Below are positions 6,852-22,536 of a stretch of DNA of 64,000 bases, in pieces (the first letter of the stretch is position 1; every line of letters starts with the position of its first letter). The stretch lies in contig QPGO01000188.1 in the NCBI GenBank assembly GCA_008632985.1, positions 1-64,000 on the forward strand, written 5' to 3'. The position numbers and the translations under genes were made by a program. This DNA is from Psammoneis japonica (Eukaryota). The notes under the pieces were generated by a model, which was given only the letters and a program-made list of their open reading frames with translations, was not told where the DNA came from and made no database searches.

Positions 6852-8190
6852 GTGGAATGGACCATTGGGGCACATTCGCCCCAGTCGTTGCATGGAGTGC
6901 GGTGTGACTGACATTGTGTCTGGCGGCAATCGCCGGTCTGAAAAGCAGACAAGTGGATCATGCGCAAGCATTTCCACAAGCAGAGCTGGAAGAACCAGCA
7001 TGTGTGAGACTCCCAGAAGGGCGGGAAGTGAAAGACGAAAATGGAAACATCATGCCAGACATGGCATGCAAACTGAAAAAGAACTCATGCGGCACAAAAA
7101 CTGCTGCACGAAACTGGTTCCAGAAACTGTCAAAGGGGCTGGAACGACGCAGTTTCAAAAAATCAAAAATGGACCCATGTCTGTTCATCAGAAATGACTG
7201 CATCATCTGCTTGCACACAGATGGTTGTTTGGTTTTTGCTCCAAAGAACTGCATTGTCGCTGCACTCATGCAAGAACTCAAGCAAGACGAGCTTCAACTT
7301 GCCGACGAAGGTGATGCACCCGCTTTCCTCAGTGTGGATGTGGCCAATGCCGTCGATGGCAAAATCCACATGACCCAGACAGGTCTTGTTGATTCCGCGT
7401 TGAAAGACCTTGGTCTGAGGTCCCACAACAATGAACCATTGCAGAGCAGGCCACAAACAAAGGCTGCTCCAGCAGCGCAAATGCTGCACCCTGACACAGA
7501 CGGTCAGGAGCATCAAGAACTGTGGAGCTGCCGGTCTGTTGTCGGAAAGATGAGCTCTCTGGCACAAATGACTCGACCAGACATTGCAGTGGCAGCGCAC
7601 ATGTGCACCAGATTTTTCAACTGCCCAAAGGCATTGCACGAACGAGCAGTTGAGCGCATCGGACGTCATCTGCTGGCAACTTCAACAGATGGCATTGAGC
7701 TCCGGCTGAAAGGGAAATTCTCCCTGGGCGCATGTGTTGACAGCGACTTCGCGGGAATGTGGTGCAGAAATTTTGCCCATCTCCACGAATCGCACCTGTC
7801 ATGATCAGGGTGTGTTGTCACATTCGCAGGCTGTCCAATCTGTTGGAAGAGCAAATTGCAAACCGAGACAGCTCTCTCCTCAACCGAGGCTGAACTCGTT
7901 GCACTGTCGCAGTGCCTGAGAGAGCCACTTCCAATGAGAACTGTGCCAGAAGAACTGTCCAAAACCATGGGTTTTGAGCTGGCAAATTCACACATTGAAT
8001 CTGGTTCTCTGGAAACTCGTGTGCTTCCACACAAGCTTCCCCCGTCCACAGCGCATGAAGACAAAACAGGGTGCACTGCACTGGCCACCTCTGACGAGCA
8101 ATGCAGAGCCAGAGCCAAGCACACAACCATCAAATGGATGCACTTTTGGGACCACACAAAACGTGGTTCTGTGAAGAAGGCAGTGAAAGT
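6852..8190 (+). pseudogene. pol: Ty1/copia reverse transcriptase-RNase H fragment
   Basis: TFAPVVAW, QVDHAQAFPQAEL, SKMDPCLF, ICLHTDG (YxDD), TRPDIA, CVDSDFAG, QTETALSSTEAE. Confidence 0.92.
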
Positions 8191-8423
8191 TGGCGACACA
8201 TTGAGCAGTCCAAACAGACTGCTGCTTCACTCAAAAACAGCATTTTTGGATGTGTGCAAACAGCATTTTTTGCTTCGCTTGTCCTCGAAGCACGAGGGAG
8301 AGAAACACCCTGGACACACCCCAGACATTTTCTGGGAATGCTCTGGAGGCTGTGCGCAGATGTTGCTGCATCGGCTTGGCTCCATTGCTGGCATTGGTCA
8401 GAGCCCTCGTCGACACGAGGGAG

Positions 8424-8593
8424 TGTCACGTTCAGCTGGAGCTCGCAGGACAGACGGACGGACGGACGGATGGACAGATGGAGCTCATTCGCACGGACTC
8501 AGAGAGATGATGTCGAAGATTCTCTGACGCAGCTGGCTCATGGACCACAGAACAGTCGCGAGCCTCTTTGGCTCACAACATCCACACAAGACA
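8424..8593 (+). mobile_element. Copia LTR (duplicated 3' LTR, 170 bp)
   Basis: TGTC...GACA termini, preceded by polypurine tract GAGGGAG. Matches 20241-20410 and 11434-11603. Confidence 0.9.
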
Positions 8594-11433
8594 CCCTTTG
8601 TGATTTGGTGCCCTCAACAGACATTTTTTGTCCTTTTTGATTTTGTGCCCTTGGCCATTTTGCTGGTCACGACAGAGCTGCAGAACAACAAGAACCTGCC
8701 CGATGAAGAGCGCGGGGCAAAGGAGAGAAAGTGCGTGAGGTGCCAGAAGCACTTCACGGCAGGGAGCTCCAAGAATGGAGATGCGGAAGGGAGCGCACCC
8801 AGGAAACGCAAGAGGGAGGATTTTTGCAGGAAGATTGTGGCAGAGCGTGACAGGAAAGTGGAGGAGGGGGGCAATGGGCTGGGGGATGAGGAAAGCCACG
8901 TGGCGGGTTGCGCTGAGACACACGAGCTGGAGCCAGCACCTGTTTGGCAGACAATGTGTGAAAAGTGGCAGTCATGTTTGTTGCAAATGACGTTGCAGGC
9001 ACAATCCAAATTGAGCGACTGCACTCCACGGCGCCAGCTGGAGAGCAACTGGGGAAGGGCACAACACGGGTGGTGCCTTGGGAAACCAGTCAGCCGATCT
9101 GTTGTCAGTCAGCTGTTGATTGTGTTTGAGTGGGTGCGCCGGAGTTTTTGGCCTGCTCGCTTTCCACGTGGCCTGGAACAACCCAAATCTGTGCAGACTC
9201 AGCACGCTTTGCCCTGCAGAACAGTTTTTGGGAGCGTTCTCTGGCTCGCGGCTCAAAACGACACGTGAAATGTCGCATTTTCGCATTTTCGCATTTTCGC
9301 ATTTTCGCATTTTCGCATTTTCGCATTTTCGCATTTTCACTGGTGGTCTTCAAATCAAGAACAACCTCGCCACGTGTTGCAGGAGGGCACTGAAGGGACA
9401 CAGCCCACTGGCAGGGCGCTGATCAAACAAGATTTGCGGCGCAAGTGTTTGGCGCTGGGGGCGCCTTTGAGGTTTTGTGCCCTCAGCCATGTTGCGCAAT
9501 TCTTGATTTTGTGCCCTTGACTTTTTTGTGCCCTTGGCTGCTTTGCGCCCTTTCCTTTTTTTGTGCCCTCGAGCACTTTGCCCCATCTCGTGGTTTTGTG
9601 CCCTTGGCCATTTTGCGCCCTTTGTGACTTTGTGCCCTTGCCCACTTTGTGCCTTTTTTGGCTTTGGGCCCTCAGCCGCATTTGGCGCCCCTCATGATTT
9701 TGTGCCTTCAGCAATTTTTGGCCATTGTGGCTTTGTGCCCTTTGCCGCCTTGGACCCTTTCTGATTTTTTGCCCTTGGCAGCTTTGTGCCCTCAGCCGCC
9801 ATTTTGCGCCCTCAGCCATTTTGTGGCCTCAGCCGCTTTGTGCCCCTGCCTGGTTTGTGCTCTTTGTGATTTGGCGCCCTCGACAGACATTTTTTGTCCT
9901 TTTTGATTTTGTGCCCTTGGCCATTTTGCTGGTCACAACAGAGTTGCAGAACAGCAAGAACCTGCCCGATGAAGAACACGGGGCAAAGGAGAGAAAGTGC
10001 ACGAGGTGCCTGAAGCACTTCACAGCAGGGAGCTCCAAGAATGGAGATGCGGAAGGGAGCGCACCCAGGAAACGCAAGAGGGAGGATTTTTGCAGGAAGA
10101 TTGTGGCAGAGCGTGACAGGAAAGTGGAGGAGGGGGGCAGTGGGTTGGGGGATGAGGAAAGCCATGTGGGGGGTTGGACCCAGACACATGAGCTGGAGCC
10201 AACACCTGTTTGGCAGACAATGTGTGAAAAGTGGCAGTCACCTTTGTTGCAAATGACGTTGCAGGCACAACCCAAATTGAGTGACTGTGCTCCACGGTGC
10301 CAGCCGGAGAGCAGCCGGGGAAGGGCGCGACACAAGCGGCACTTTGGGAAGCCAGCCAACCGATCTGTTGTCAGTCAGTTGTCGAATGTGTTTGAGTGGG
10401 TGCGCCGGAGTTTTTGGCCCGCTCACTTTCTGCGTGGCCTGGTGCAACCCAAATCTGTGTGGACTCAGCACGCTTTGCCCTGCAGAACAGTTTTTGGGAG
10501 TGTTCTCTGGCTCGCGGCTCAAAATGATGCGCAAAATGGCGCGGACAATGGGTGCGGTGGCGCGCCTGTTTGTCCGTTTTCTGTCCTTCAACAGTGGATG
10601 TAAATCAGACACGGCAGTGCATCCATTTGTCCGTTTTCTGTCCTTCAACAACAGACGCAGTTTAGATGCCGTGGTGTGTCCATTTCGCCTTTTCTGGCCT
10701 TCAACAGGAGACACAAAGCAGATCGGAAGGTGTGCCGACATCTCAAAATCTGTTGAGCAGATCCGGAGTTGTGTCGACATCTCTGAATCTGTCAAGAGTG
10801 TGCGAGGTCGGCTGGGCACTTTTGCTCTTCCTGGTTTGTTGCCATTGGCCACTTTGTGCCCTTTGTGCCTTTTTGCCTTTTGCGCTGCCCTTGGCCAATT
10901 TGTGCCCTTTGCAACTTTGTGCCCTCAGCTGCCATTTTGCACTCTCACTCCGTTCAGTGATTTTTTTGTGCCCCAGGAAAGTTTGTGCCCTTTGTGATTT
11001 TGTGCCCTCAACTCCCATTTTTTGTCATTTTTTGTTTTGCGCCCTTGGCCATTTTGCACCTTTGAGATTTTGTGCCATCAGTCATGTTGCGCAACTCTTG
11101 ATTTTGTGCCCTTGACCTTTTTGTGCCCTTGGCTGTTTTGTGCCCTTTCCTTTTTTTGTGCCCTTGAGCATCGTGTGCTTTTCATGGTTTTGTGCCCTTG
11201 GCCATTTTGCGCCCTTTGTGACTTTGTGCCCTTGTCCATTTTGCACCTTTTTTGGTTTTGGGCCCTCAGCCGCATGTGGCGCCCCTCGCGACATTGTGGT
11301 TTTGTGCCCTTTGCCATTTTGGACCCTTTGTGATTTTTTGCCCTTGGCAGCTTTGTGCCCTCAGCCACCATTTTGCACCCTCAGTCATTTTGTGACCTCA
11401 GCAATTTTGTGCCCCTGCCTGGTTTGTGCCCTT
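8594..11433. repeat. Modular macro-repeat: (CGCATTTT)n, TTTTGTGCCCTT-rich array and a GA-rich module
   Basis: The same modules recur in the same orientation at about 20411-25060, 37705-38050, 38685-41792 and 45490-47570. (CGCATTTT)n lies at 9274-9338. Confidence 0.85.
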
Positions 11434-11664: not shown

Positions 11665-12060
11665 GATGGGTTCCAGCCCCAGGTGGGACTTTTTGTGACA
11701 TTGGGCCCGCAGAATTCTGCGTGTGAGCTCTGCAGTAAAATCATCAATGTGTGAATGTGTGGATGATCGCCAACAGAAAAAGAGGCAATTTTGCGAACGC
11801 ATCTCCTCCTCCACACTTGAAGCACATTCTTTGTGGCATGCCCGGGTGTGTTCTTTGGACATCAAAGAACATGCCCAGCACATTTTTGTTGACATGAGTG
11901 CAGATGACAGAAAGCCTTTGGCTTCGCAAAACAGGCAGTGTGGAACAATTTTTTACAACAGAACACTTGGAAATGTGCGCGCGAAACGTGCGACGGATGA
12001 CAAAAAACAATTGAGTCACAGTTCAGCAGTGCGAGGTCCCACCCAGAGCTGGAACACGTC
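11665..12060 (+). mobile_element. MITE, subfamily A (396 bp), in the copia 5' leader
   Basis: Imperfect TIRs GA(C/T)GGGTTCCAG..CAGGTGGGAC and GTCCCACC..G.GCTGGAACACGTC. TSD CGCC/CACC. Confidence 0.88.
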
Positions 12061-12067
12061 CACCACC

Positions 12068-15000
12068 ATGGCACCATCCTCCAGCACCAAACGCACTGGC
12101 AAGTCCAAATCGGGCAAGGGCTCTTCTGAATCGCAGAAGCCCAGCGCCGCCGCGACACCCTCACCATCTCATGGAGCGCGTCCCTCGAAAGAAGGGCGGG
12201 AAAGTCGACACGGCTCTCAATGAACTCATCAAACATGCGCCCAAAAAGGCACCGCATGATGACGATGTCGACCGTCAGAACCCTGACGGCAATGCACTTG
12301 AGGACGATGACATGCATGACAACGACGGCATCGCAAAACTCACGTCAGTGACGAACTTGGACGACATGGATGTTTCTGACGACGACAGTGTCTCGTCTGA
12401 CAAGTCCAACAAGTCCAGTGCAGAAACCCGCCGCAAGCGCACCAAAAAGCACTTGTCCAAGCGCAAGCGCGAGAGGCTTGCCACCCACATTGACAAAGTT
12501 GCTGCGGCTGCATGTGCTGACAAGCGCATTGCACAACTGGCCAAACTGCTAGAAGGCAAATTGACTGTGTCCCCTGAGTCATTCTTTGACTTCCTCTTTT
12601 GTCTTGAGGAACGTCTTCAGAGCTCCCCTGTGTGGGCTAAAGTCATGAAGCTCAACAACGGCATGTCTTTGACAAAAGACTTCACCAAAGTGGTGCTGTG
12701 GGGTGTTGAAACCGACGAGGTCATCGCCAAGAAATCCGATGACCAGACACACATGCATTTCGCGCAACGTGCGCTCAAGGCCCTGCTTGTTGCCTCGCAT
12801 GACAAAGAGCTGCGTCGGGCAATTGCATCTGATGAAAATGTCATGGATCATCTCCACAAGGATGGCGCAATGTGCTTCTGCCATGGCTTCAAGCAGCTGT
12901 TCCCGTTGCCCGAGATGCACGTCAATGGCGTCCAGACAAAATTGTCCAAAGTTTCTCTCATTGACGATTGCGACGGCAATGTCAGCACATTTTTGCATGA
13001 GTTCAGGCAGCACCTCCGCCTGGTTCACAAGCGTGACAACATGCTTGAGTGCACTCTCGTCGAGAAAGCCTTCAAAGAACTCCAAACTGCCACATGCAAG
13101 CCATTCGCAGCCAAGATGGCCCAGCATGAGACCAATTGGATGCGCAAGAAACACGTCAAATGGACTGTCGAGACCCTGTTCGAGGAAGCCAACAGCCTCC
13201 AGACGGCACTTGAGGCACAGAATCTTTGGGACAAACCTTCCACGGAAGAAACCCAGTTCATGGCCATGCTGGCTCAGAACGAACAGCTCGTCAACTTCGC
13301 GCAGCAGATGACAAAGGTCGCCTCTGCTTTCCAGTCATCCCTGCAGCAGAGGTCGCGGTGCAAGCATCGCAACAACCGTTGCAACCGCCACGACAACCGC
13401 CGGGGACATCAGGGTCATGGTGGTTGCAGAAACGGTCGTGACCGCGCACCTCGCTGTGGTTCCCCTCCATTCTTGTGCATTGAACCCGAGAACAAAGAAA
13501 CGGAAAAGGAGTGGGGCAACAAGAAGTTTCATTGGCGTGATGCATGCAAGATGCACTCCACTCGCCACAGCACCGGCACCCACAACGAATGCATTGCCTC
13601 CAACAACAACAAGAGCGGCAAGCATCCTGGAAATGCACAACCCAAGTCTGGATGTGACCACAAGCGCCAGCTCAGAACGAACAGCTCGTCAACTTCGCGC
13701 AGCAGATGACAAAGGTCACCTCTGCTTTCCAGTCATCCCTGCAGCAGAGGTCGCGGTGCAAGCATCGCAACAACCGTTGCAACCGCCACGACAACCGCCG
13801 GGGACATCAGGGTCATGGTGGTTGCAGAAACGGTCGTGACCGCGCACCTCGCCGTGGTTCCCCTCCATTCTTGTGCATTGAACCCGAGAACAAAGAAACG
13901 GAAAAGGAGTGCGACATGGACGTTTCTGATGACAGTGTCTCGTCTGACAAGTCCAACAAGTCCAGTGCGGAAACCCGCCGCAAGCACACCAAAAAGCACT
14001 TGTCCAAGCGCAAGCGCGAGAGGCTTGCCACCCACATTGACAAAGTCGCTGCGGCTGCATGTGCTGACAAGCGCATTGCACAACTGGCCAAACTGCTAGA
14101 AGACAAATTGACTGTGTCCCCTGAGTCATTCTTTGACTTCGTCTTTTGTCTTGAGGAACGTCTTCAGAGCTCCCCTGTGTGGGCTAAAGTCATGAAGCTC
14201 AACAACGGCATGTCTTTGACAAAAGACTTGACCAAAGTGGTGCTGTGGGGTGTTGAAACCGACGAGGTCATCGCCAAGAAATCCGATGACCAGACACACA
14301 TGCATTTCGCGCAACGTGCGCTCAAGGCCCTGCTTGTTGCCTTGCATGACAAAGAGCTGCATCAGGCAATTGCATCTGACGAAAATGTCATGGATCATCT
14401 CCACAAGGACGGCACAAAGTGCTTCTGCCATGGCTTCAAGCAGCTGTTCTCGTTGCCCGAGATGCGCGTCAATGGCATCCAGACAAAATTGTCCAAAGTT
14501 TCTCTCATTGACAATTGCGATGGCAATGTCAGCACATTTGTGCATGAGTTCAGGCAGCACCTCCGCCTGGTTCACAAGCATGGCAACATGCTCAAGTGCA
14601 CTCTCATCAAGAAAGCCTTCAACGAACTCCAAACCGCCACATGCAAGCCATTCGCAGCCAAGATGGCCCAGCATGAGACCAATTGGATGCGCAAGAAACA
14701 CGTTAAATGGACTGTCGAGACCCTGTTCAAGGAAGCCAACAGCCTCCAGACGGCACTTGAGGCACAGAATCTTTGGGACAAACCTTCCACGGAAGAAACC
14801 CAGTTCATGGCCATGCTGGCTCAGAACGAACAGCTCGTCAACTTTGCGCAGCAGATGACAAAGGTCGCCTCTGCTTTCCAGTCATCCCTGCAGCAGAGTT
14901 TGCGGTGCAAGCATCGCAACAACCGTTGCAACCGCCGTGACAACTGCCGGGGACATCAGGGTCATGGTGGTTGCGGAAACGGTCATGACCGCGCACCTCG

Positions 15001-15585
15001 CCGTGGTTCCCCTCCGTTCTTGTACATTGAACACTAGAACAAAGAAACGGAAAAGGAGTGGGGCAACAAGAAGTGGCGCTGGTGTGATGCATGCAAGATG
15101 CACTCCACTCGCCACAGCACCGGCACCCACAACGAATGCATTGCCTCCAACAACAACAAGAGCGGCAAGCGTCCTGGAAACGCACAACCCAAGTCTGGAT
15201 GTGACCACAAGCGCCAGCTCAGAATGAACAGCTCGTCAACTTCGCGCAGCAGATGACAAAGGTCGCCTCTGCTTTCCAGTCATCCCTGCAGCAGAGTTCG
15301 TGGTGTGAGCATCGCAACAACCATTGCAACCACCATGACAACCGCCGGGGACATCAGGGTCGTGGTGGTTGCGGAAACGGTCGTGACTGCACACCTCGCC
15401 GTGGTTCCCCTCTGTTCTTGCACATTGAACCCGAGAACAAAGAAACGGAAAAGGAGTGGGGCAACAAGAAGTGGCATTGGTGTGATGCATGCAAGATGCA
15501 CTCCACTCGCCACAGCACCGGCACCCATGACGAATGCATTGCCTCCAACAACAACAAGAGCGGCAAGCGTCCTGGAGACGCGCAA
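12068..15585 (+). pseudogene. gag: Copia gag-like region with internal tandem duplications
   Basis: ATG at 12068, then a frameshift into ORF 12171-13709. Cys/His motif WCDACKMHSTRH. 12362-13669 is repeated at 13912-15216, and the 3' part (from 13272) again at 13670-13911 and 15217-15585. Confidence 0.75.
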
Positions 15586-18500
15586 TTAAAGTCTCCTTAA
15601 AGGGTGTTGCATCTGGCCCAGCCATTGAGGGCGTTGGCACGGTGAGATGCGGCTTTGTGGATGACGGTGGCAACAATTTTGCCATTGATGTCAACAATGT
15701 GCTGTGTGCACCCACCTGCCTGGTTCGTCTGCTGTGCCCTCAACAAGTGGCAGCTGCAAGCCCCAATGAGGACACAGATGGGTTCTTTGCAAGGGGCAAG
15801 TCCACGACAATGATCTGTGGACAACATCGCAAAACCGTGCGATGCCATCACGAGTCGAATCTGCCGATTCTTGCTGCGGCTCCAGGCTTTGGCAATTTTT
15901 GAGCTTTCTGCTTTGACACTGATGCAAATGGCAAACTGCCACCTTGCACCAACACAAAGGCATGCTCGGCTTTGCATCCGGCTTTTGCTGTCACAACAAG
16001 AAAGCAAAAGGCGGTGGCCAACACAAACAAACAACAGACTTCTGACAATCAGCAGAGCAAAAAGTCAAACGAAAATGAAAAGAAACCAAGGCCTGCTCAG
16101 CCTCAACAGGACCTGCCAGTCCATGAGGGGGGCACAGAAGACAACCTGCTTCCCATCCAATGCAACATGTTGAAATTGCACCATCGCATGGGACACGTTG
16201 GTTTTGAACAAATCAAAGAATGGGCCAAGATCGGTGCCGTGCCGAAACTCTTTGCAAAATGCGAAGCTCCAGTCTGCAAAGCATGTGCTTGTGCAAAAGC
16301 CAAGTGCAAGGCAGCTCAGCGTGGCCACCGCATTGATGAATGCCATGACAATGCTCCAGGTCAAGGAGTGTCTGCGTGCAGCATGCATGCAGACAAAAGG
16401 TCATTTTTGTCATGCCCTTTGTGACATTTAAAGGCTGCAGCACGTCGCCATGATGCATTGACTCTCATTGGCAGCTGCACGTTGCACTCCTCCCCATGTG
16501 CCGCACGTCCATGCGGCTCTTTGCTGACGTGTGCTGACACTGCACGGTTTTGGTGGAACAGTGTGGGTGCGTGCGAAGGAACATGCAGAACTGCACAGAG
16601 TTTTGCGCGTTCGACAGTGATCAACGTTGCTGCGGACAACTCCCACTCAGGGTTTCGAACCCCTGGCCTCCTGCCCAATGGTTGCGATGAACCACTCCAC
16701 CATGAATTCACAATGCAGTGTGCATGCAGACAAAAGGTCATTTTTGTCATGCCCTTTGTGACATTTGAAGGCTGCAGCACGTTGCCGTGATGCATCAACT
16801 CTTGTTGGTGGCTGTGTGTTGCACGCGGATCAACTCGATGCGAGTCATCCGGGCCCACTTCCCACTTCTCGTGGCAAACCAACTGCTTGCAGGTGCAAAC
16901 ATTGCACTCTGTGGATTGATCACTTCTCTGGATTTATCCATCCTCACATGCAAGAGTCCACTGGGGGAAAAGAGACCTTGACTGGCAAAACCAAGCTCGA
17001 GAGATTCACAGCAAAACACAATGTAAAAATCAAGCACACTCATGCCAATGACGGCACATTCGCCACCGCAGAGTTCACACAACACTGCGTTGAAAACAAA
17101 CAACGAAACTCCTTTTGTGGAGCAGGAGCACACTGGCAAAACGGCATCTTGGAACGCTGCACAGGCATCATCACCTCGATGGCACGAACACACCTGTCAC
17201 ATGCTCAGCCCCTCTGGTCTGATGCAGCAACCACGGAATTGTGGCCATTTGCCATCAGACAAGCTGTCAATTTCCACAATGTGTGCGTCCAAAAAGGAAA
17301 AGAGAAAAACCCCTGGGAGCTGTTCACTGACAAGAAACCGCCATTTCAAATGGACGATTTTTGCGTGTGGGGGTGTCCTGTTTACATCGCGGACAAAAGT
17401 GTCCAAGGCGGGACTCACATTGGAAGATGGGCCGAACGGTCATGTGCACGTGGGACATTCGCTGGACCATGCCAGCAATGTCCATTTGGCATGGTGCCCC
17501 ACAACCAAACACGTCTCGCCACAATTTCATGTCACATTTGACAAAAACTTTGCAACAGCAGTGCCTGGAAAGACATCAAGCAATGATCTTGAGGCAGCTC
17601 TTGAAAAATCATTTGATGACCATGCAAACACTTAGACTCACCATGATGAACATTTCGACCACAATCAATGTTGTTTTGAAAAGAATGTTTGGAGCAAGGA
17701 CGACTTGCTCCGCGAACACAGTGTTGACCCTCAAGCGTGCAAACAGGTGCAAAAGACCAACCACAAATCACCAGGGAGAAAAAGAGACCGTGCTGGACAA
17801 GAAAAGCCAGACAATGACGACACACCATCTGAGATTCTGCCAGCTGTTGATGTCTCGGCCGACACACCGACACATGCGGCAGCTGCACTGGCAGACACGA
17901 CAATGCCAGCAGAATTGGCACATGCTGAAGCCTCCGAGGCTGTGCCACCTGCAGCGGGAGGTTCTGTGTCGGAGAGAGCAGAGGGGACCCACTCATTGTC
18001 AAACCGACCACTGTTGGTTGACAATGCAACACCGTTGATTGCAGACAATGCAGTCACCCAGGGCCCAACTGTGGCAACTCCAGAGGACGCTGCAACTTCT
18101 TCGCCAATGAAAGAAGCCCTCCAACATTCAAACAATGAAGCAGACTGTGCTTGCCATCAACTTCATGAGTGCAAATGCCGAAAAGGTTTGGATGACGATG
18201 CGACTTGCACAACAGCACAGAACAATGCAAAAAACAGCAACTCACCTGACATGAATGCGCACATCACAACACCTCTGTGCCACAAAGAAGTTGCAGCTGA
18301 ACCACACGAAGAGCTTGCACATCTGATGGCACTCGTGGGTTCAGCAGACAATGACATGCTTCTTGACGAAGACACATGGAACGAATCCAGTCCACTCGCT
18401 TTCGAAGCAGCGGCGCCAGGTGACGTCGACACCCTGACCCAGGGCCAGATGAAAAGAGCGCCAGACCACGCCAAATTTGAAAAAGCCCAAGTTCCAGAAA

Positions 18501-20010
18501 CACAAGGGCTGGCAGATGTGGATGCATGGGAACACATGCCACGTTCTGAAGTGCCAAAAGACCACTGGTTGTCAAGTGCAATCTGGTCACACAAAAGAAA
18601 AAGGAAACCAAGTGGTGAGCTTTCAAAACACAAAGCCAGAATGTGTGTCGACGGTTCCAAACAACAACGTGGAATGGACCATTGGGGCACATTCGCCCCA
18701 GTCGTTGCATGGAGTGCGGTGTGACTGACATTGTGTCTGGCGGCAATCGCCGGTCTGAAAAGCAGACAAGTGGATCATGCGCAAGCATTTCCACAAGCAG
18801 AGCTGGAAGAACCAGCATGTGTGAGACTCCCAGAAGGGCGGGAAGTGAAAGACGAAAATGGAAACATCATGCCAGACATGGCATGCAAACTGAAAAAGAA
18901 CTCACGCAGCACAAAAACTGCTGCACGAAACTGGTTCCAGAAACTGTCAAAGGGGCTGGAACGACGCAGTTTCAAAAAATCAAAAATGGACCCATGTCTG
19001 TTCATCAGAAATGACTGCATCATCTGCTTGCACACAGATGATTGTTTGGTTTTTGCTCCAACGAACTACATTGTCACTGTGCTCATGCAAGAACTCAAGC
19101 AAGACGAGCTTCAACTTGCCGACGAAGGCAATGCACCCGCTTTCCTCAGTGTGGATGTTGCCAATGCCGTCGACGGCAAAATCCACATGACCCAGACAGG
19201 TCTTGTTGATTCCACGTTGAAAGACCTCGGTCTGAGGTCCCACAACAATGAACCATTGCAGAACAGGCCACAAACAAAGGCTGCTCCAGCAGCACAAATG
19301 CTGCACCCTGACACAGATGGTCAGGAGCGTCAAGAACTGTGGAGCTGCCGGTCTGTTGTCGGAAAGATGAGCTCTCTGGCACAAATGACTCGACCAGACA
19401 TTGCAGTGGCAGCGCATGTGTGCACCAGATTTTTCAACTGCCCAAAGGCATTGCACGAACGAGCAGTTGAGTGCATCGGACGTCATCTGCTGGCAACTTC
19501 AACAGATGGCATTGAGCTCCGGCTGAAAGGGAAATTCTCCCTGGGTGCATGTGTTGACAGCGACTTCGCGGGAATGTGGCACAGAAATTTTGCCCATCTC
19601 CACGAATCGCACCTGTCATGATCAGGGTGTGTTGTCACATTCGCAGGCTGTCCAATCTGTTGGAAGAGCAAATTGCAAACCGAGACAGCTCTCTCCTCAA
19701 CCAAGGCTGAACTCGTTGCACTGTCACAGTGCCTGAGAGAGCCACTTCCAATGAGAACTGTGCCAGAAGAACTGTCCAAAACCATGGATTTTGAACTGGC
19801 AAATTCACACATTGAATCTGGTTCTCTGGAAACTCATGTGCTTCCACACAAGCTTCCCCCGTCCACAGCGCATGAAGACAAAACAGGGTGCACTGCACTG
19901 GCCACCTCTGACAAGCAATGCAAGGCCAGAGCCAAGCACACAAGCATCAAATGAATGCACTTTCGGGACCACACAAAACGTGGTTCTGTGAAGAAGGCAG
20001 TGAAAGTGGG
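15586..20010 (+). pseudogene. pol: Copia pol: partial protease, integrase, RT and RNase H, with frameshifts and stops
   Basis: IEGVGTV..VLCAP..RLLCPQQ. HHRMGH..CKAC (HHCC). SADQL (split by the TRIM), WIDHFS, HWQNGILER, LWPFA. WSHKRKR..KHKARMC, ICLHTDD, CVDSDFAG. Confidence 0.92.
16377..16823 (-). mobile_element. TRIM-like miniature LTR element (447 bp) inserted in the integrase
   Basis: 110-bp direct repeats at 16377-16486 and 16714-16823 with TG...CA ends. Minus-strand PPT GGGGAGGAG at 16487-16495. 4-bp TSD TGCG/CGCG. Removing it restores PGQGVSADQL. Confidence 0.85.
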
Positions 20011-20240
20011 CGACACATTGAGCAGTCCAAACAGACTGCTGCTTCACTCAAAAACAGCATTTTTGGACATGTGCAAACAGCATTTTTCGCTTCACTTGTC
20101 CTCGAAGCACGAGGGAGAGAAACACCCTAGACACACCCCAGACATTTTCTGGGAATGCTCTGGAGGCTGTGCGCAGATGTTGCTGCATCGGCTTGGCTCC
20201 CTTGCTGGCATTGGTCAGAGCCCTCGTCGACACGAGGGAG

Positions 20241-20410
20241 TGTCACGTTCAGCTGGAGCTCGCAGGACAGATGGACAGACGGACGGATGGACAGACGGAG
20301 CTCATTCGCACTGACTCAGAGAGATGATGTCGAAGATTCTCTGACGCAGCTGGCTCGTGGACCACAGAACAGTCGCAAGCCTCTTTGGCTCACAACATCC
20401 ACACAAGACA
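20241..20410 (+). mobile_element. Copia 3' LTR
   Basis: Follows the PPT, has TGTC...GACA termini and is followed by TSD CCCTT. Confidence 0.92.
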
Positions 20411-22536
20411 CCCTTTGTGATTTGGTGCCCTCAACAGACATTTTTTGTCCTTTTTGATTTTGTGCCCTTGGCCATTTTGCTGGTCACGACAGAGCTGCAG
20501 AACAACAAGAACCTGCCCGATGAAGAGCGCGGGGCAAAGGAGAGAAAGTGCGTGAGATGCCTGAAGCACTTCACGGCAGGGAGCTCCAAGAACGGAGATG
20601 CGGAAGGGAGCGCACCCAGGAAATGCAAGAGGGAGGATTTTTGCAGGAAGATTGTGGCAGAGCGTGACAGGAAAGTGGAGGAGGGGGGCAATGGGCTGGG
20701 GGATGAGGAAAGCCACGTGGTGGGTTGCGCTGAGACACACGAGCTGGAGCCAACACCTGTTTGGCAGACAATGTGTGAAAAGTGGCAGTCATGTTTGTTG
20801 CAAATGACGTTGCAGGCACAATCTAAATTGAGCGACTGCACTCCACGGTGCCAGCTGGAGAGCAAATGGGGAAGGGCACAACACGGGTGGTGCCTTGGGA
20901 AACCAGTTGGCCGATCTGTTGTCAGTCAGCTGTTGAATGTGTTTGAGTGGGTGCGCCGGAGTTTTTGGCCCGCTCGCTTTCCACGTGGCCTGGAACAACC
21001 CAAATCTGTGCAAACTCAGCACGCTTTGCCCTGCAGAACAGTTTTTGGGAGCGTTCTCTGGCTCGCGGCTCAAAATGACACGCAAAATGGCACGGACAAT
21101 GGCGTTTTGCCAAGTTGAAAAATGCGATTGTCTCTGAGGTCGGAACCTGGATGCTCTCAACAGAACTCGGTGCATTGTGTCATCTTGTGCGAGATGAGCT
21201 CGAGAGCACCCAGGTTCACATGGGCGGACTGTGGCGAAAATTCTTGCTGAAGGCTCGCACTGACAACGTCGCTTCTGTTGCTTTGCGACCAAGACACGCT
21301 GCCATTCGTGCTGTGTGTTTTGTCGAGGCTTCATGTGTTTGCAGCCGCTCAATTTGTTGAATGTGTTTGAGTGGGTCCGCCGGAGTTTTTGGCCGGCTCA
21401 CTTTCCACGTGGCCTGGAACAACCCAAATCTGTGCAGATTCAGCGCGTTTTGCCCTGCAGAGCAGTTTTTGGGAGTGCTCTCTGGCTCGTGGCTCAAAAT
21501 GACACGCAAAATGGCGCGGACAATGGCGTTTTGCCAAATTGAAAAATGCGGTCATCTCTGAGGTCGGAACCTGGATGCTCTCAATGGAGCTCGGCGCTGT
21601 CACATCATCTTCTGTGAGACATGCTCAAGAACATCCAGGCTCACATGGGCAGATCATGGCGAAAATTCTTGCCGAAGGTTTGCACTGACAACATCGCTTC
21701 TGTTGCATCACAACCAACCTCATGTGCTGCCATTTGTGCTGTGTGTTTTGTTGAGGCTTCACATGTTTGCAGCCGTTCAATTTGCGCGCAGCTTCTCTTT
21801 CTACATTGTTCTTTTGTTTGCCCTGCAGGACAATTTTTTGGGAGTGTTTTCTGGCTCTGCGGCTCAAAACAACACGCAAAACAGCGCGGACAATGGCGTT
21901 TTGCCAAGTTGAAAAATGCGATCGTCTCTGAGGTCGGAACCTGGACACTCTCAATGGAATTTGGCGCGTCTTTTGTTTGCCCTGCAGGGCAATTTTTTGG
22001 GAGTGTTTTCTGGCTCTGCGGCTCAAAACAACACGCAAGACAGCACGGACAATGGCGCTTCGCCAAGTTGAAAAATGCGATGGTCTCTGAGGTCGGAACC
22101 TGGGCACTCTCAACGGAATTTGGTGCGTCACATCACTCGCATTTTTCGCATTTTCGCATTTTCGCATTTTCGCATTTTCGCATTTTCGCATTTTCGCATT
22201 TTCGCATTTTCACATTTTCACATTTTCGCATTTTCGCATTTTCGCTGGTGGTCTTCAAATCAAGAACAACCTCGCCACGTGTTGCAGGGGGGCACTGAAG
22301 GGACACAGCCCACTGGCAGGGCGCTGATCAAACAAGATTTGCGGCGCAAGTGTTTGGCGCTGGGGGCGCCTTTGAGATTTTGCGCCCTCAGCCATGTTGC
22401 GCAATTCTTGATTTTGTGCCCTTGACCTTTTTGTGCCCTTGGCTGTTTTGCGCCCTTTCCTTTTTTTGTGCCCTCGAGCACTTTGCCCCATCTCGTGGTT
22501 TTGTGCCCTTGGCCATTTTGCGCCCTTTGTGACTTT

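Follow-up and report, generated by a model that had tools for sequence, protein, structure and literature searches.

In the window (the whole 64,000-nt stretch of DNA analyzed here), a decayed copia element is interrupted by a geneless insertion of 447 bp (16377-16823) that reads on the minus strand and carries, directly behind its 5′ LTR, two motifs resembling the internal boxes of a tRNA gene. This arrangement raises the question of whether the boxes serve, or once served, as a Pol III promoter for the insertion, and of how reverse transcription of such an element might be primed. The features on which the argument draws are as follows.

15903-19618, plus strand: decayed part of the copia pol gene hosting the insertion (pre-integrase, integrase region, and RT)
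16373-16376, plus strand: left target-site duplication (TSD), TGCG, from flank comparison and empty sites
16377-16486, minus strand: 3′ LTR, 110 bp, from sister-LTR comparison
16395-16398, minus strand: first T4 run 3′ of the boxes, candidate Pol III terminator, LTR position 89-92
16427-16432, minus strand: LTR motif TTTAAA, putatively TATA-like, LTR position 55-60
16487-16495, minus strand: polypurine tract (PPT) GGGGAGGAG, a 9-mer present in 28 of 30 loci
16640-16702, minus strand: module of tRNA origin, aligning best with tRNA-Glu(CTC) and tRNA-Asp(GTC) among host tRNAs
16651-16661, minus strand: B-box GGTTCGAAACC in a T-arm-like hairpin with a 4-bp stem, from an exact 21-mer and a host-tRNA matrix
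16692-16702, minus strand: A-box-like TGGTGGAGTGG, the edited form of the window copy, sharing its opening two bases with the end of the palindrome
16701-16712, minus strand: 12-bp palindromic priming site TGTGAATTCATG, separated from the LTR by 1 nt and standing where a tRNA primer-binding site (PBS) would be expected
16714-16823, minus strand: 5′ LTR, 110 bp, with TGCA...TGCA ends, from sister-LTR comparison
16824-16827, plus strand: right TSD, CGCG, from flank comparison and empty sites

Structure, dispersal, and insertion site of the TRIM

We are nearly certain that the insertion is a TRIM. Its internal domain of 227 nt has no coding capacity for mobilization, and the 5′ and 3′ LTRs of the window copy are 87% identical. 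The earlier note on this DNA had described 110-bp LTRs, a PPT, and a TSD, and all of these lie where it placed them (LTRs at 16377-16486 and 16714-16823), the TSD being 4 bp long. Its further premise of a multicopy element with varied TSDs also holds. Exact matches to a 21-mer spanning the B-box number 246 in the genome, compared to none for the reversed control. The first 30 of these matches all lie at the TRIM position behind an LTR, one of the loci being truncated and two others broken up by insertions. When the TRIM itself was used in a DNA search, the best 40 of 322 candidates scored gave at least 41 matches with 89-100% identity. The 30 loci hold 31 full copies with flanks that differ between copies, and the 4-bp TSD is perfect in 28 of the 31, with one mismatch in the other three. 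TRIM structure, copy number, and Gypsy-like ends and TSD are established by these data.

Among the 100 matches listed, two pairs of TRIM units stand in tandem, 337-339 bp apart. Two further loci on one contig (L145 and L146, G000:C118) hold rearranged TRIM pieces in which an inverted LTR segment comes after an LTR end and the palindrome; such pieces might have arisen by fold-back during reverse transcription or be artifacts of assembly. A tRNA-derived SINE, with its head at the 5′ end and no LTRs, was considered and rejected, given that all 30 sampled B-box matches (the first 30 of the 246) lie behind an LTR and none is a free SINE with this head. A search for look-alikes found the element in zero other genomes, and 14 matches to a 19-mer of the element in metagenome contigs show no likeness to it beyond that 19-mer.

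The TRIM lies antisense to the copia pol gene. Five other copies of this copia element lack the TRIM, and in one of them (L250) the two flanks overlap by exactly 4 nt, which together demonstrate a true insertion with a 4-bp TSD. The earlier note had placed the TRIM within the copia integrase. Nesting in copia is confirmed by the empty sites, by a GAG-pre-integrase match just left of the insertion (Pfam, E 5e-6, under the curated cut-off), and by an RVT_2 match downstream (Pfam). Because the copia piece to the right of the insertion has no Pfam match, the label “integrase” reflects position and motifs judged by eye. The host copia element is probably not the mobilizer of the TRIM. Elsewhere in the window, a 2.4-kb duplication (6852-9272 and 18669-21089, 97%) comprises the RT/RNase H end of copia, and an internal tandem duplication of a gag region spans 12015-15235.

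A tRNA-derived module and its mutation

The internal module is derived from a tRNA. When the 75-nt module of a little-edited copy (L078) is aligned to host tRNAs, the best scores are 48 for tRNA-Glu(CTC) and 46.5 for tRNA-Asp(GTC). For comparison, 300 shuffles of the module, each given its best score against all 36 host tRNAs, average 30.3 and reach at most 43.0, such that none of the 300 attains 48. The A-box-like motif (16702-16692), the 30-nt spacer, and the B-box (16661-16651) in its T-arm-like hairpin are all found as first described, and the proposal of a tRNA-derived A/B-box module in the internal domain is thereby upheld. The module nevertheless is not a tRNA gene, as it lacks both the acceptor and the anticodon stem. 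ARAGORN reports no tRNA gene in the window, and an Rfam scan of the window copy and L078 yields neither a tRNA nor a 5S match at E up to 10. Folding of the module is no better than that of shuffles (z -0.52 and -0.16), and there is no cloverleaf.

Several properties of the two boxes remain tRNA-like. With matrices built on host tRNAs, the unedited A-box TAGCGGAGT scores 9.2 bits, inside the host tRNA range of -2.5 to 12.3, compared to 7.4 bits for the window form and 3.4 for the common CA form; the best A-box score within the TRIM LTR is 5.7 bits. The B-box scores 13.6 bits (host tRNAs, 9.1 to 17.6). The distance from T8 to G53 is 44 nt in L078 and 43-47 nt in host class I tRNAs. The module begins at internal base 12, which is the T of the A-box, and the boxes have the same sense as the PPT of the TRIM. 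The A-box form TAGCGGAGTGG is present in 3 of 30 copies from an unbiased sample.

Box conservation was also assessed across copies, as the earlier note had proposed. The boxes are indeed conserved, an unbroken B-box being present in 37 of 40 copies that were not picked by their B-box. However, the CpG of the B-box is retained in 39 of 40 copies and a control CpG of the same context outside the module likewise in 39 of 40, and 2 of 68 copies carry shared deletions in the A-box. Because the neutral control is kept equally well, the retained boxes are not evidence of selection, and selection on the boxes within the TRIM family is rejected as their explanation.

The ratio of observed to expected TpA, taken per 2 kb, is 0.00-0.17 across the whole window, where the dinucleotide is nearly erased; it is 0.03-0.26 at TRIM loci compared to 0.08-0.65 around tRNA genes. 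CA/TG pairs, which had been remarked upon as differences between the two LTRs, are the main kind of sister-LTR difference in the 31 copies, with 90 doublets among 201 events. The same events include 23 of TA versus TG or CA, 58 involving CG, and 4 transversions, and 17 pairs of Gypsy LTRs show 128 differences of TA versus TG or CA. In 68 distinct TRIM copies, TG and CA states are uncorrelated both between sites and between sister LTRs. Therefore, each site was hit separately after insertion, and the mobile form had TA. In other words, TpA-to-TpG/CpA mutation struck the TRIM copies once they were in place. The edits in the window are independent per site and strand, with a strong context bias.

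The A-box begins with CA in 51, TG in 9, and TA in 4 of the 68 copies; among 30 matches not picked by likeness to the window the counts are CA 24, TA 3, and TG 1, with no box in 2. The TGG start in the window is a minority, mutated form. We also considered whether a doubly edited, compensated palindrome had been amplified as a master copy. This idea is rejected because the palindrome arms are unlinked (p = 0.58), the mean correlation between sites is r 0.00-0.06, the 10 homologous site pairs of the LTRs all fall short of p < 0.05, and the one-sided bias is equally strong at other sites. The TSD is CATG in 5 of the 31 full copies (L002, L006, L011, L017, and L029), hinting at target preference or at convergence via TpA editing.

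Changes of TpA to TpG or CpA in foreign or repeated DNA are described for Bigelowiella natans in the accessible part of a preprint (bioRxiv 10.64898/2026.01.13.699255), and the likeness to the present case lies in these changes. That report concerns mutation-accumulation lines and viral insertions in a chlorarachniophyte, whereas the process here is read from retrotransposon LTR pairs and is nearly saturated. As the mutator strikes the first base of the A-box, it offers a concrete route by which genome defense could weaken a Pol III retroelement. Loss of the A-box T after insertion, in about three-quarters of the copies, should weaken any promoter formed by the module.

A palindrome at the primer site

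The start of the A-box overlaps a 12-nt palindrome that occupies internal bases 2-13. In unedited copies such as L078 and L083 it reads TATGAATTCATA, and it is perfect in 22 of 29 TRIM copies from an unbiased sample, against a background of 16 perfect palindromes in 76,928 12-mers. No PBS complementary to a tRNA was found in this place: against 38 host tRNAs, an incomplete set, the longest complementary run behind the TRIM LTR is 7 nt.

The runs that do exist raise the possibility that half of a host tRNA-Met, or the tRNA-like piece itself, primes reverse transcription. A 7-nt stretch of the priming zone pairs with elongator tRNA-Met, in its anticodon loop, and a 6-nt stretch with tRNA-iMet. 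However, by our estimate chance alone would give roughly one run of 7 nt in a set of 38 tRNAs, and two other TRIM families that served as controls in the same test give 9-nt runs to tRNA-iMet. Moreover, among the plant elements surveyed in PMC6317226, half-tRNA priming occurs only in Copia lineages according to the accessible part of that paper, whereas the ends and TSD of the TRIM are of Gypsy type. Self-priming by the tRNA-like piece, as the earlier note had suggested, is not supported by the copies themselves, in which the longest complement of the priming zone elsewhere is 5 nt (downstream) and the longest inside the LTR is 3 nt. Overall, priming by either of these tRNA sequences is very unlikely.

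Palindromes of this kind recur in the host Gypsy elements. LTR pairs were obtained for 17 of 20 elements taken from 150 listed Gypsy matches. At the same offset as in the TRIM, 6 of the 17 have a perfect 12-nt palindrome and 3 have one shifted by one base, and in the remaining 8, 6-10 of the 12 positions are paired. The best match to the complement of the palindrome within the 17 Gypsy LTRs has 3-5 mismatches in 12, and therefore these elements do not use Tf1-type self-priming. In at least five Gypsy families (L121-L139, L256-L285), a 12-nt palindrome specific to the family replaces the PBS; two of them have a 4-bp TSD and three a 5-bp TSD. The palindromic primer site common to the TRIM and the host Gypsy elements is a priming mode that remains unexplained, and a high-copy element of 447 bp makes it easy to test.

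Two known systems invite comparison. Fungal GalEa Copia elements carry a “conserved hairpin site,” a palindrome right behind the 5′ LTR, without a tRNA PBS (PMC5445492, accessible part). These are Copia elements with a 5-bp TSD, a 10-nt palindrome that includes the last A of the LTR, and a second complementary 9-mer, whereas the TRIM is Gypsy-type, has a 12-nt palindrome, and showed no second complementary motif downstream when one was sought. Tf1/sushi elements resemble the TRIM in that priming is independent of tRNA in a Ty3/Gypsy setting. However, Tf1 needs a PBS complement inside its LTR, where the TRIM has a longest run of 3 nt (PMC5445492 and PMC6317226, accessible parts). The accessible part of PMC2806351 holds no primer-site data on diatom elements. 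No palindromic primer site in Gypsy was encountered in our search of full-text literature, a scope outside which most subscription papers and Repbase reports fall.

The best candidate for a mobilizing partner, judging from its termini, is Gypsy family A, which has 179 junction matches. This family matches the TRIM in the opening 8 bases of the LTR, in the TGCA end, in the T spacer, and in a TSD of 4 bp. The earlier note had called for an autonomous partner with the same LTR ends. Family A supplies the first 8 bases and TGCA, but its 12-nt palindrome, examined among the 20 of 150 listed Gypsy matches, differs in sequence from that of the TRIM. Four patterns designed on the junction or PPT of the TRIM gave 12, 6, 8, and 0 matches, all of them in TRIM copies or unrelated DNA, and thus no autonomous element with either feature. 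For a pol region of one host Gypsy element, the nearest named proteins among the strong matches are from Chaetoceros (34-35%), with best matches at 50-56% and one Haematococcus match ranking nearby; a diatom host is therefore probable.

Possible routes of transcription and priming

Our leading reading, which we hold tentatively and at somewhat less than even chance, is that the module is, or was, the Pol III promoter of the TRIM, with transcription starting in the last third of the 5′ LTR. Immediately behind its 5′ LTR, the TRIM would have acquired a type-2 Pol III promoter of tRNA origin, and its RNA would run from the last third of this LTR to, or past, the T4 of the 3′ LTR. RNA ends so placed would leave a short terminal repeat, as in Cassandra. 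As the promoter is present in a single copy, the 3′ LTR could not fire. Two packaged RNAs may then pair via the palindrome, with one being cut to prime minus-strand DNA, such that neither a host tRNA nor a matching PBS in the partner would be needed. A host Ty3/Gypsy element of the type with a palindromic primer site and a 4-bp TSD would mobilize the TRIM in trans.

This promoter reading is favored because the two boxes score inside host tRNA ranges with tRNA-like spacing, and because they have the same orientation as the PPT, the first T4 downstream of them lying only at LTR position 88-89 in 25 of 28 copies having a PPT. It is also favored because B-boxes of at least 12 bits in the roughly 120 nt that follow the LTR or pattern were found in 0 of 17 full-length Gypsy elements and 0 of 30 palindrome-pattern loci (background, 15 in 399,560 positions), and by the palindrome at the PBS position in both TRIM copies and Gypsy elements. 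Counted against the same reading are an awkward placement of the RNA ends (below), an LTR that can also be read as an ordinary Pol II LTR, box conservation no higher than that of the neutral control and the failure to find an autonomous element with the same palindrome.

Modules of this kind have been described before. In the accessible part of PMC10886601, Kojima reports TRIMs with tRNA-derived sequence, Helenus/TRIMp3, in which the piece lies in the LTRs, and makes the case that modules of this type enable TRIMs to be transcribed by Pol III. Helenus/TRIMp3 elements resemble the present TRIM in their size of <1 kb, a degenerate tRNA piece with A and B boxes, and a PPT, and Gypsy-dependent animal Helenus elements also have a 4-bp TSD. 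However, Helenus has its tRNA piece in the LTRs and PBSs complementary to tRNAs, whereas the piece here is single and internal and the primer site is a palindrome. The boxes of Helenus are TRGCY...YGG and GGTTC; those of this TRIM are TAGCG...TGG, with G as the fifth base, and GGTTC, and the fold is lost. Because its module is internal rather than in the LTRs, this TRIM is not Helenus. Cassandra, as presented in the same paper, is likewise a TRIM with a Pol III-type promoter and some tandem units, but it carries 5S sequence in both LTRs and has demonstrated Pol III transcripts, whereas the present boxes are tRNA-type, internal, and known from sequence. Membership in Cassandra/Ajax is rejected, as there is no 5S match (Rfam, E up to 10).

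The earlier note had proposed a distinct hybrid of a tRNA module and an LTR element. This design is partly new: TRIMs bearing tRNA sequence had already been described, but with the piece in the LTRs (PMC10886601, accessible part). That part of the paper makes no mention of diatoms or stramenopiles, and the accessible part of a sugar beet preprint only cites Helenus. The full-text search defined above returned no TRIM whose tRNA promoter lies internally or straddles an LTR.

One alternative, which we regard as rather unlikely though deserving of attention, is that Pol II transcribes the TRIM from its LTR and that the captured tRNA or SINE head is not needed for the RNA, acting at most as a TFIIIC-bound chromatin barrier or a packaging structure. 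The TRIM LTR can be read as an ordinary Pol II LTR, with TATA-like TTTAAA followed by poly(A)-like AAATAA in Pol II order; the TA of the TTTAAA site in the 5′ LTR is retained in 60 of 68 copies. This alternative also accommodates boxes conserved no better than the same-context control, a module without a cloverleaf (folding z about -0.5 and -0.2), and the absence of a B-box both from autonomous Gypsy elements and from L267, a Gypsy derivative of roughly 1.2 kb. However, two good boxes keep tRNA-like spacing although the stems are lost, the 30 sampled matches include no free SINE from which such a head might come, and two other families have B-boxes just behind the primer site.

The placement of the RNA ends bears on a second alternative. 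Pol III usually starts about 12-20 nt upstream of the A-box. A start at this distance would yield an RNA without a terminal repeat and therefore points to the LTR/internal junction itself, whereas a template RNA would need either a start at least 30 nt upstream, perhaps set by TTTAAA, or read-through of the T4. The T4 run preceding the A-box ends 30 nt upstream of the A-box T in the TRIM. Whether a run of four or more Ts terminates a Pol III transcript depends on its context, and the A-box and a TATA box jointly select the start in yeast U6 (PMC11346459 and PMC8362101, accessible parts).

Pol III might accordingly start at the junction and make an RNA of about 320 nt that begins with the palindrome. 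Such an RNA could pair with the palindrome of a Pol II genomic RNA, with the primer being cut by the RNase H of the partner, in a trans version of the Tf1 mode. We consider this improbable. It is consistent with the A-box T at internal base 12, which puts the usual start on the junction, with the first T4 lying 18 nt short of the LTR end, so that the RNA could not itself be the template, and with the ends of two RNA contigs at -5 and +5 of the junction. On the other hand, autonomous Gypsy elements have palindromes without any B-box, so a donor is not required in general, and the B-boxes of the two other families follow ordinary tRNA primer sites, where a donor would be useless. The corresponding general mode, in which a Pol III RNA from the palindrome primes a genomic RNA in trans without tRNA, using two RNAs and two polymerases, in a diatom Gypsy clade with self-complementary 12-mers in place of a PBS, is slightly more doubtful still.

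The two RNA contigs, one from each of two metatranscriptome studies, cover the internal domain. In the first, 3 of 4 G-to-A differences give TA where L078 has TG, as does the single listed difference in the second. Two RNA runs match, with small shares of 0.13 and 0.07. Because the contigs have a depth of about 3 and no strand information or DNA control, they are only a weak hint in favor of the promoter reading; they were located with words from L078 itself.

We return to the promoter reading with the two unrelated TRIM families that a genome search for B-box repeats revealed, each with a sense B-box behind its primer site. These modestly favor a once-functional Pol III promoter, and because the families were found via their B-boxes, only the place and strand of the boxes are informative. 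One family (L233-L237; for example, G000:C57:196717-197319, minus strand) is young and comprises five full copies with 152-bp LTRs, LTR pairs 87-100% identical, 5-bp TSDs, and a primer site for the tRNA-iMet 3′ end. Its A-box lies in the LTR, 26 nt before the LTR end and 9 nt behind the end of a T4, and its B-box lies 29 nt behind the 5′ LTR. This layout would yield a Cassandra-like short terminal repeat. On the positions of its motifs, the family is the most promising candidate here for replication through Pol III in the manner of Cassandra. L238 is related at 73%.

The other family (L204) has a half-tRNA-iMet primer site, a B-box 33 nt behind the LTR, and an A-box-like motif in the LTR about 79 nt before its end. 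T4 runs follow soon after the B-box; these misfit a full-length Pol III RNA and thus count against the promoter reading. Members (L204, L206-L212, L220-L225, and L229-L232) often form tandem arrays with a period of 410-422 bp, and the family has a second tRNA-like stretch on the opposite strand.

The TRIMp3 idea has so far meant promoters copied in both LTRs. In the layouts seen here, either both boxes are internal or, in the two families, an A-box in the LTR is joined by a B-box behind the primer site, such that the full promoter stands at the 5′ end only. If active, these layouts would widen the ways in which nonautonomous LTR elements are transcribed.

B-boxes in this genome also occur in other settings. 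An MITE-like element some 215 bp long (L173, L175-L183, and others in L185-L202), which has terminal inverted repeats and is complete in L175, has a perfect B-box just inside one end and starts 23 of the 30 loci of the B-box search. At another locus (L184, G000:C4:666471), a tRNA-like stretch followed by T5 adjoins Gypsy integrase-like sequence.
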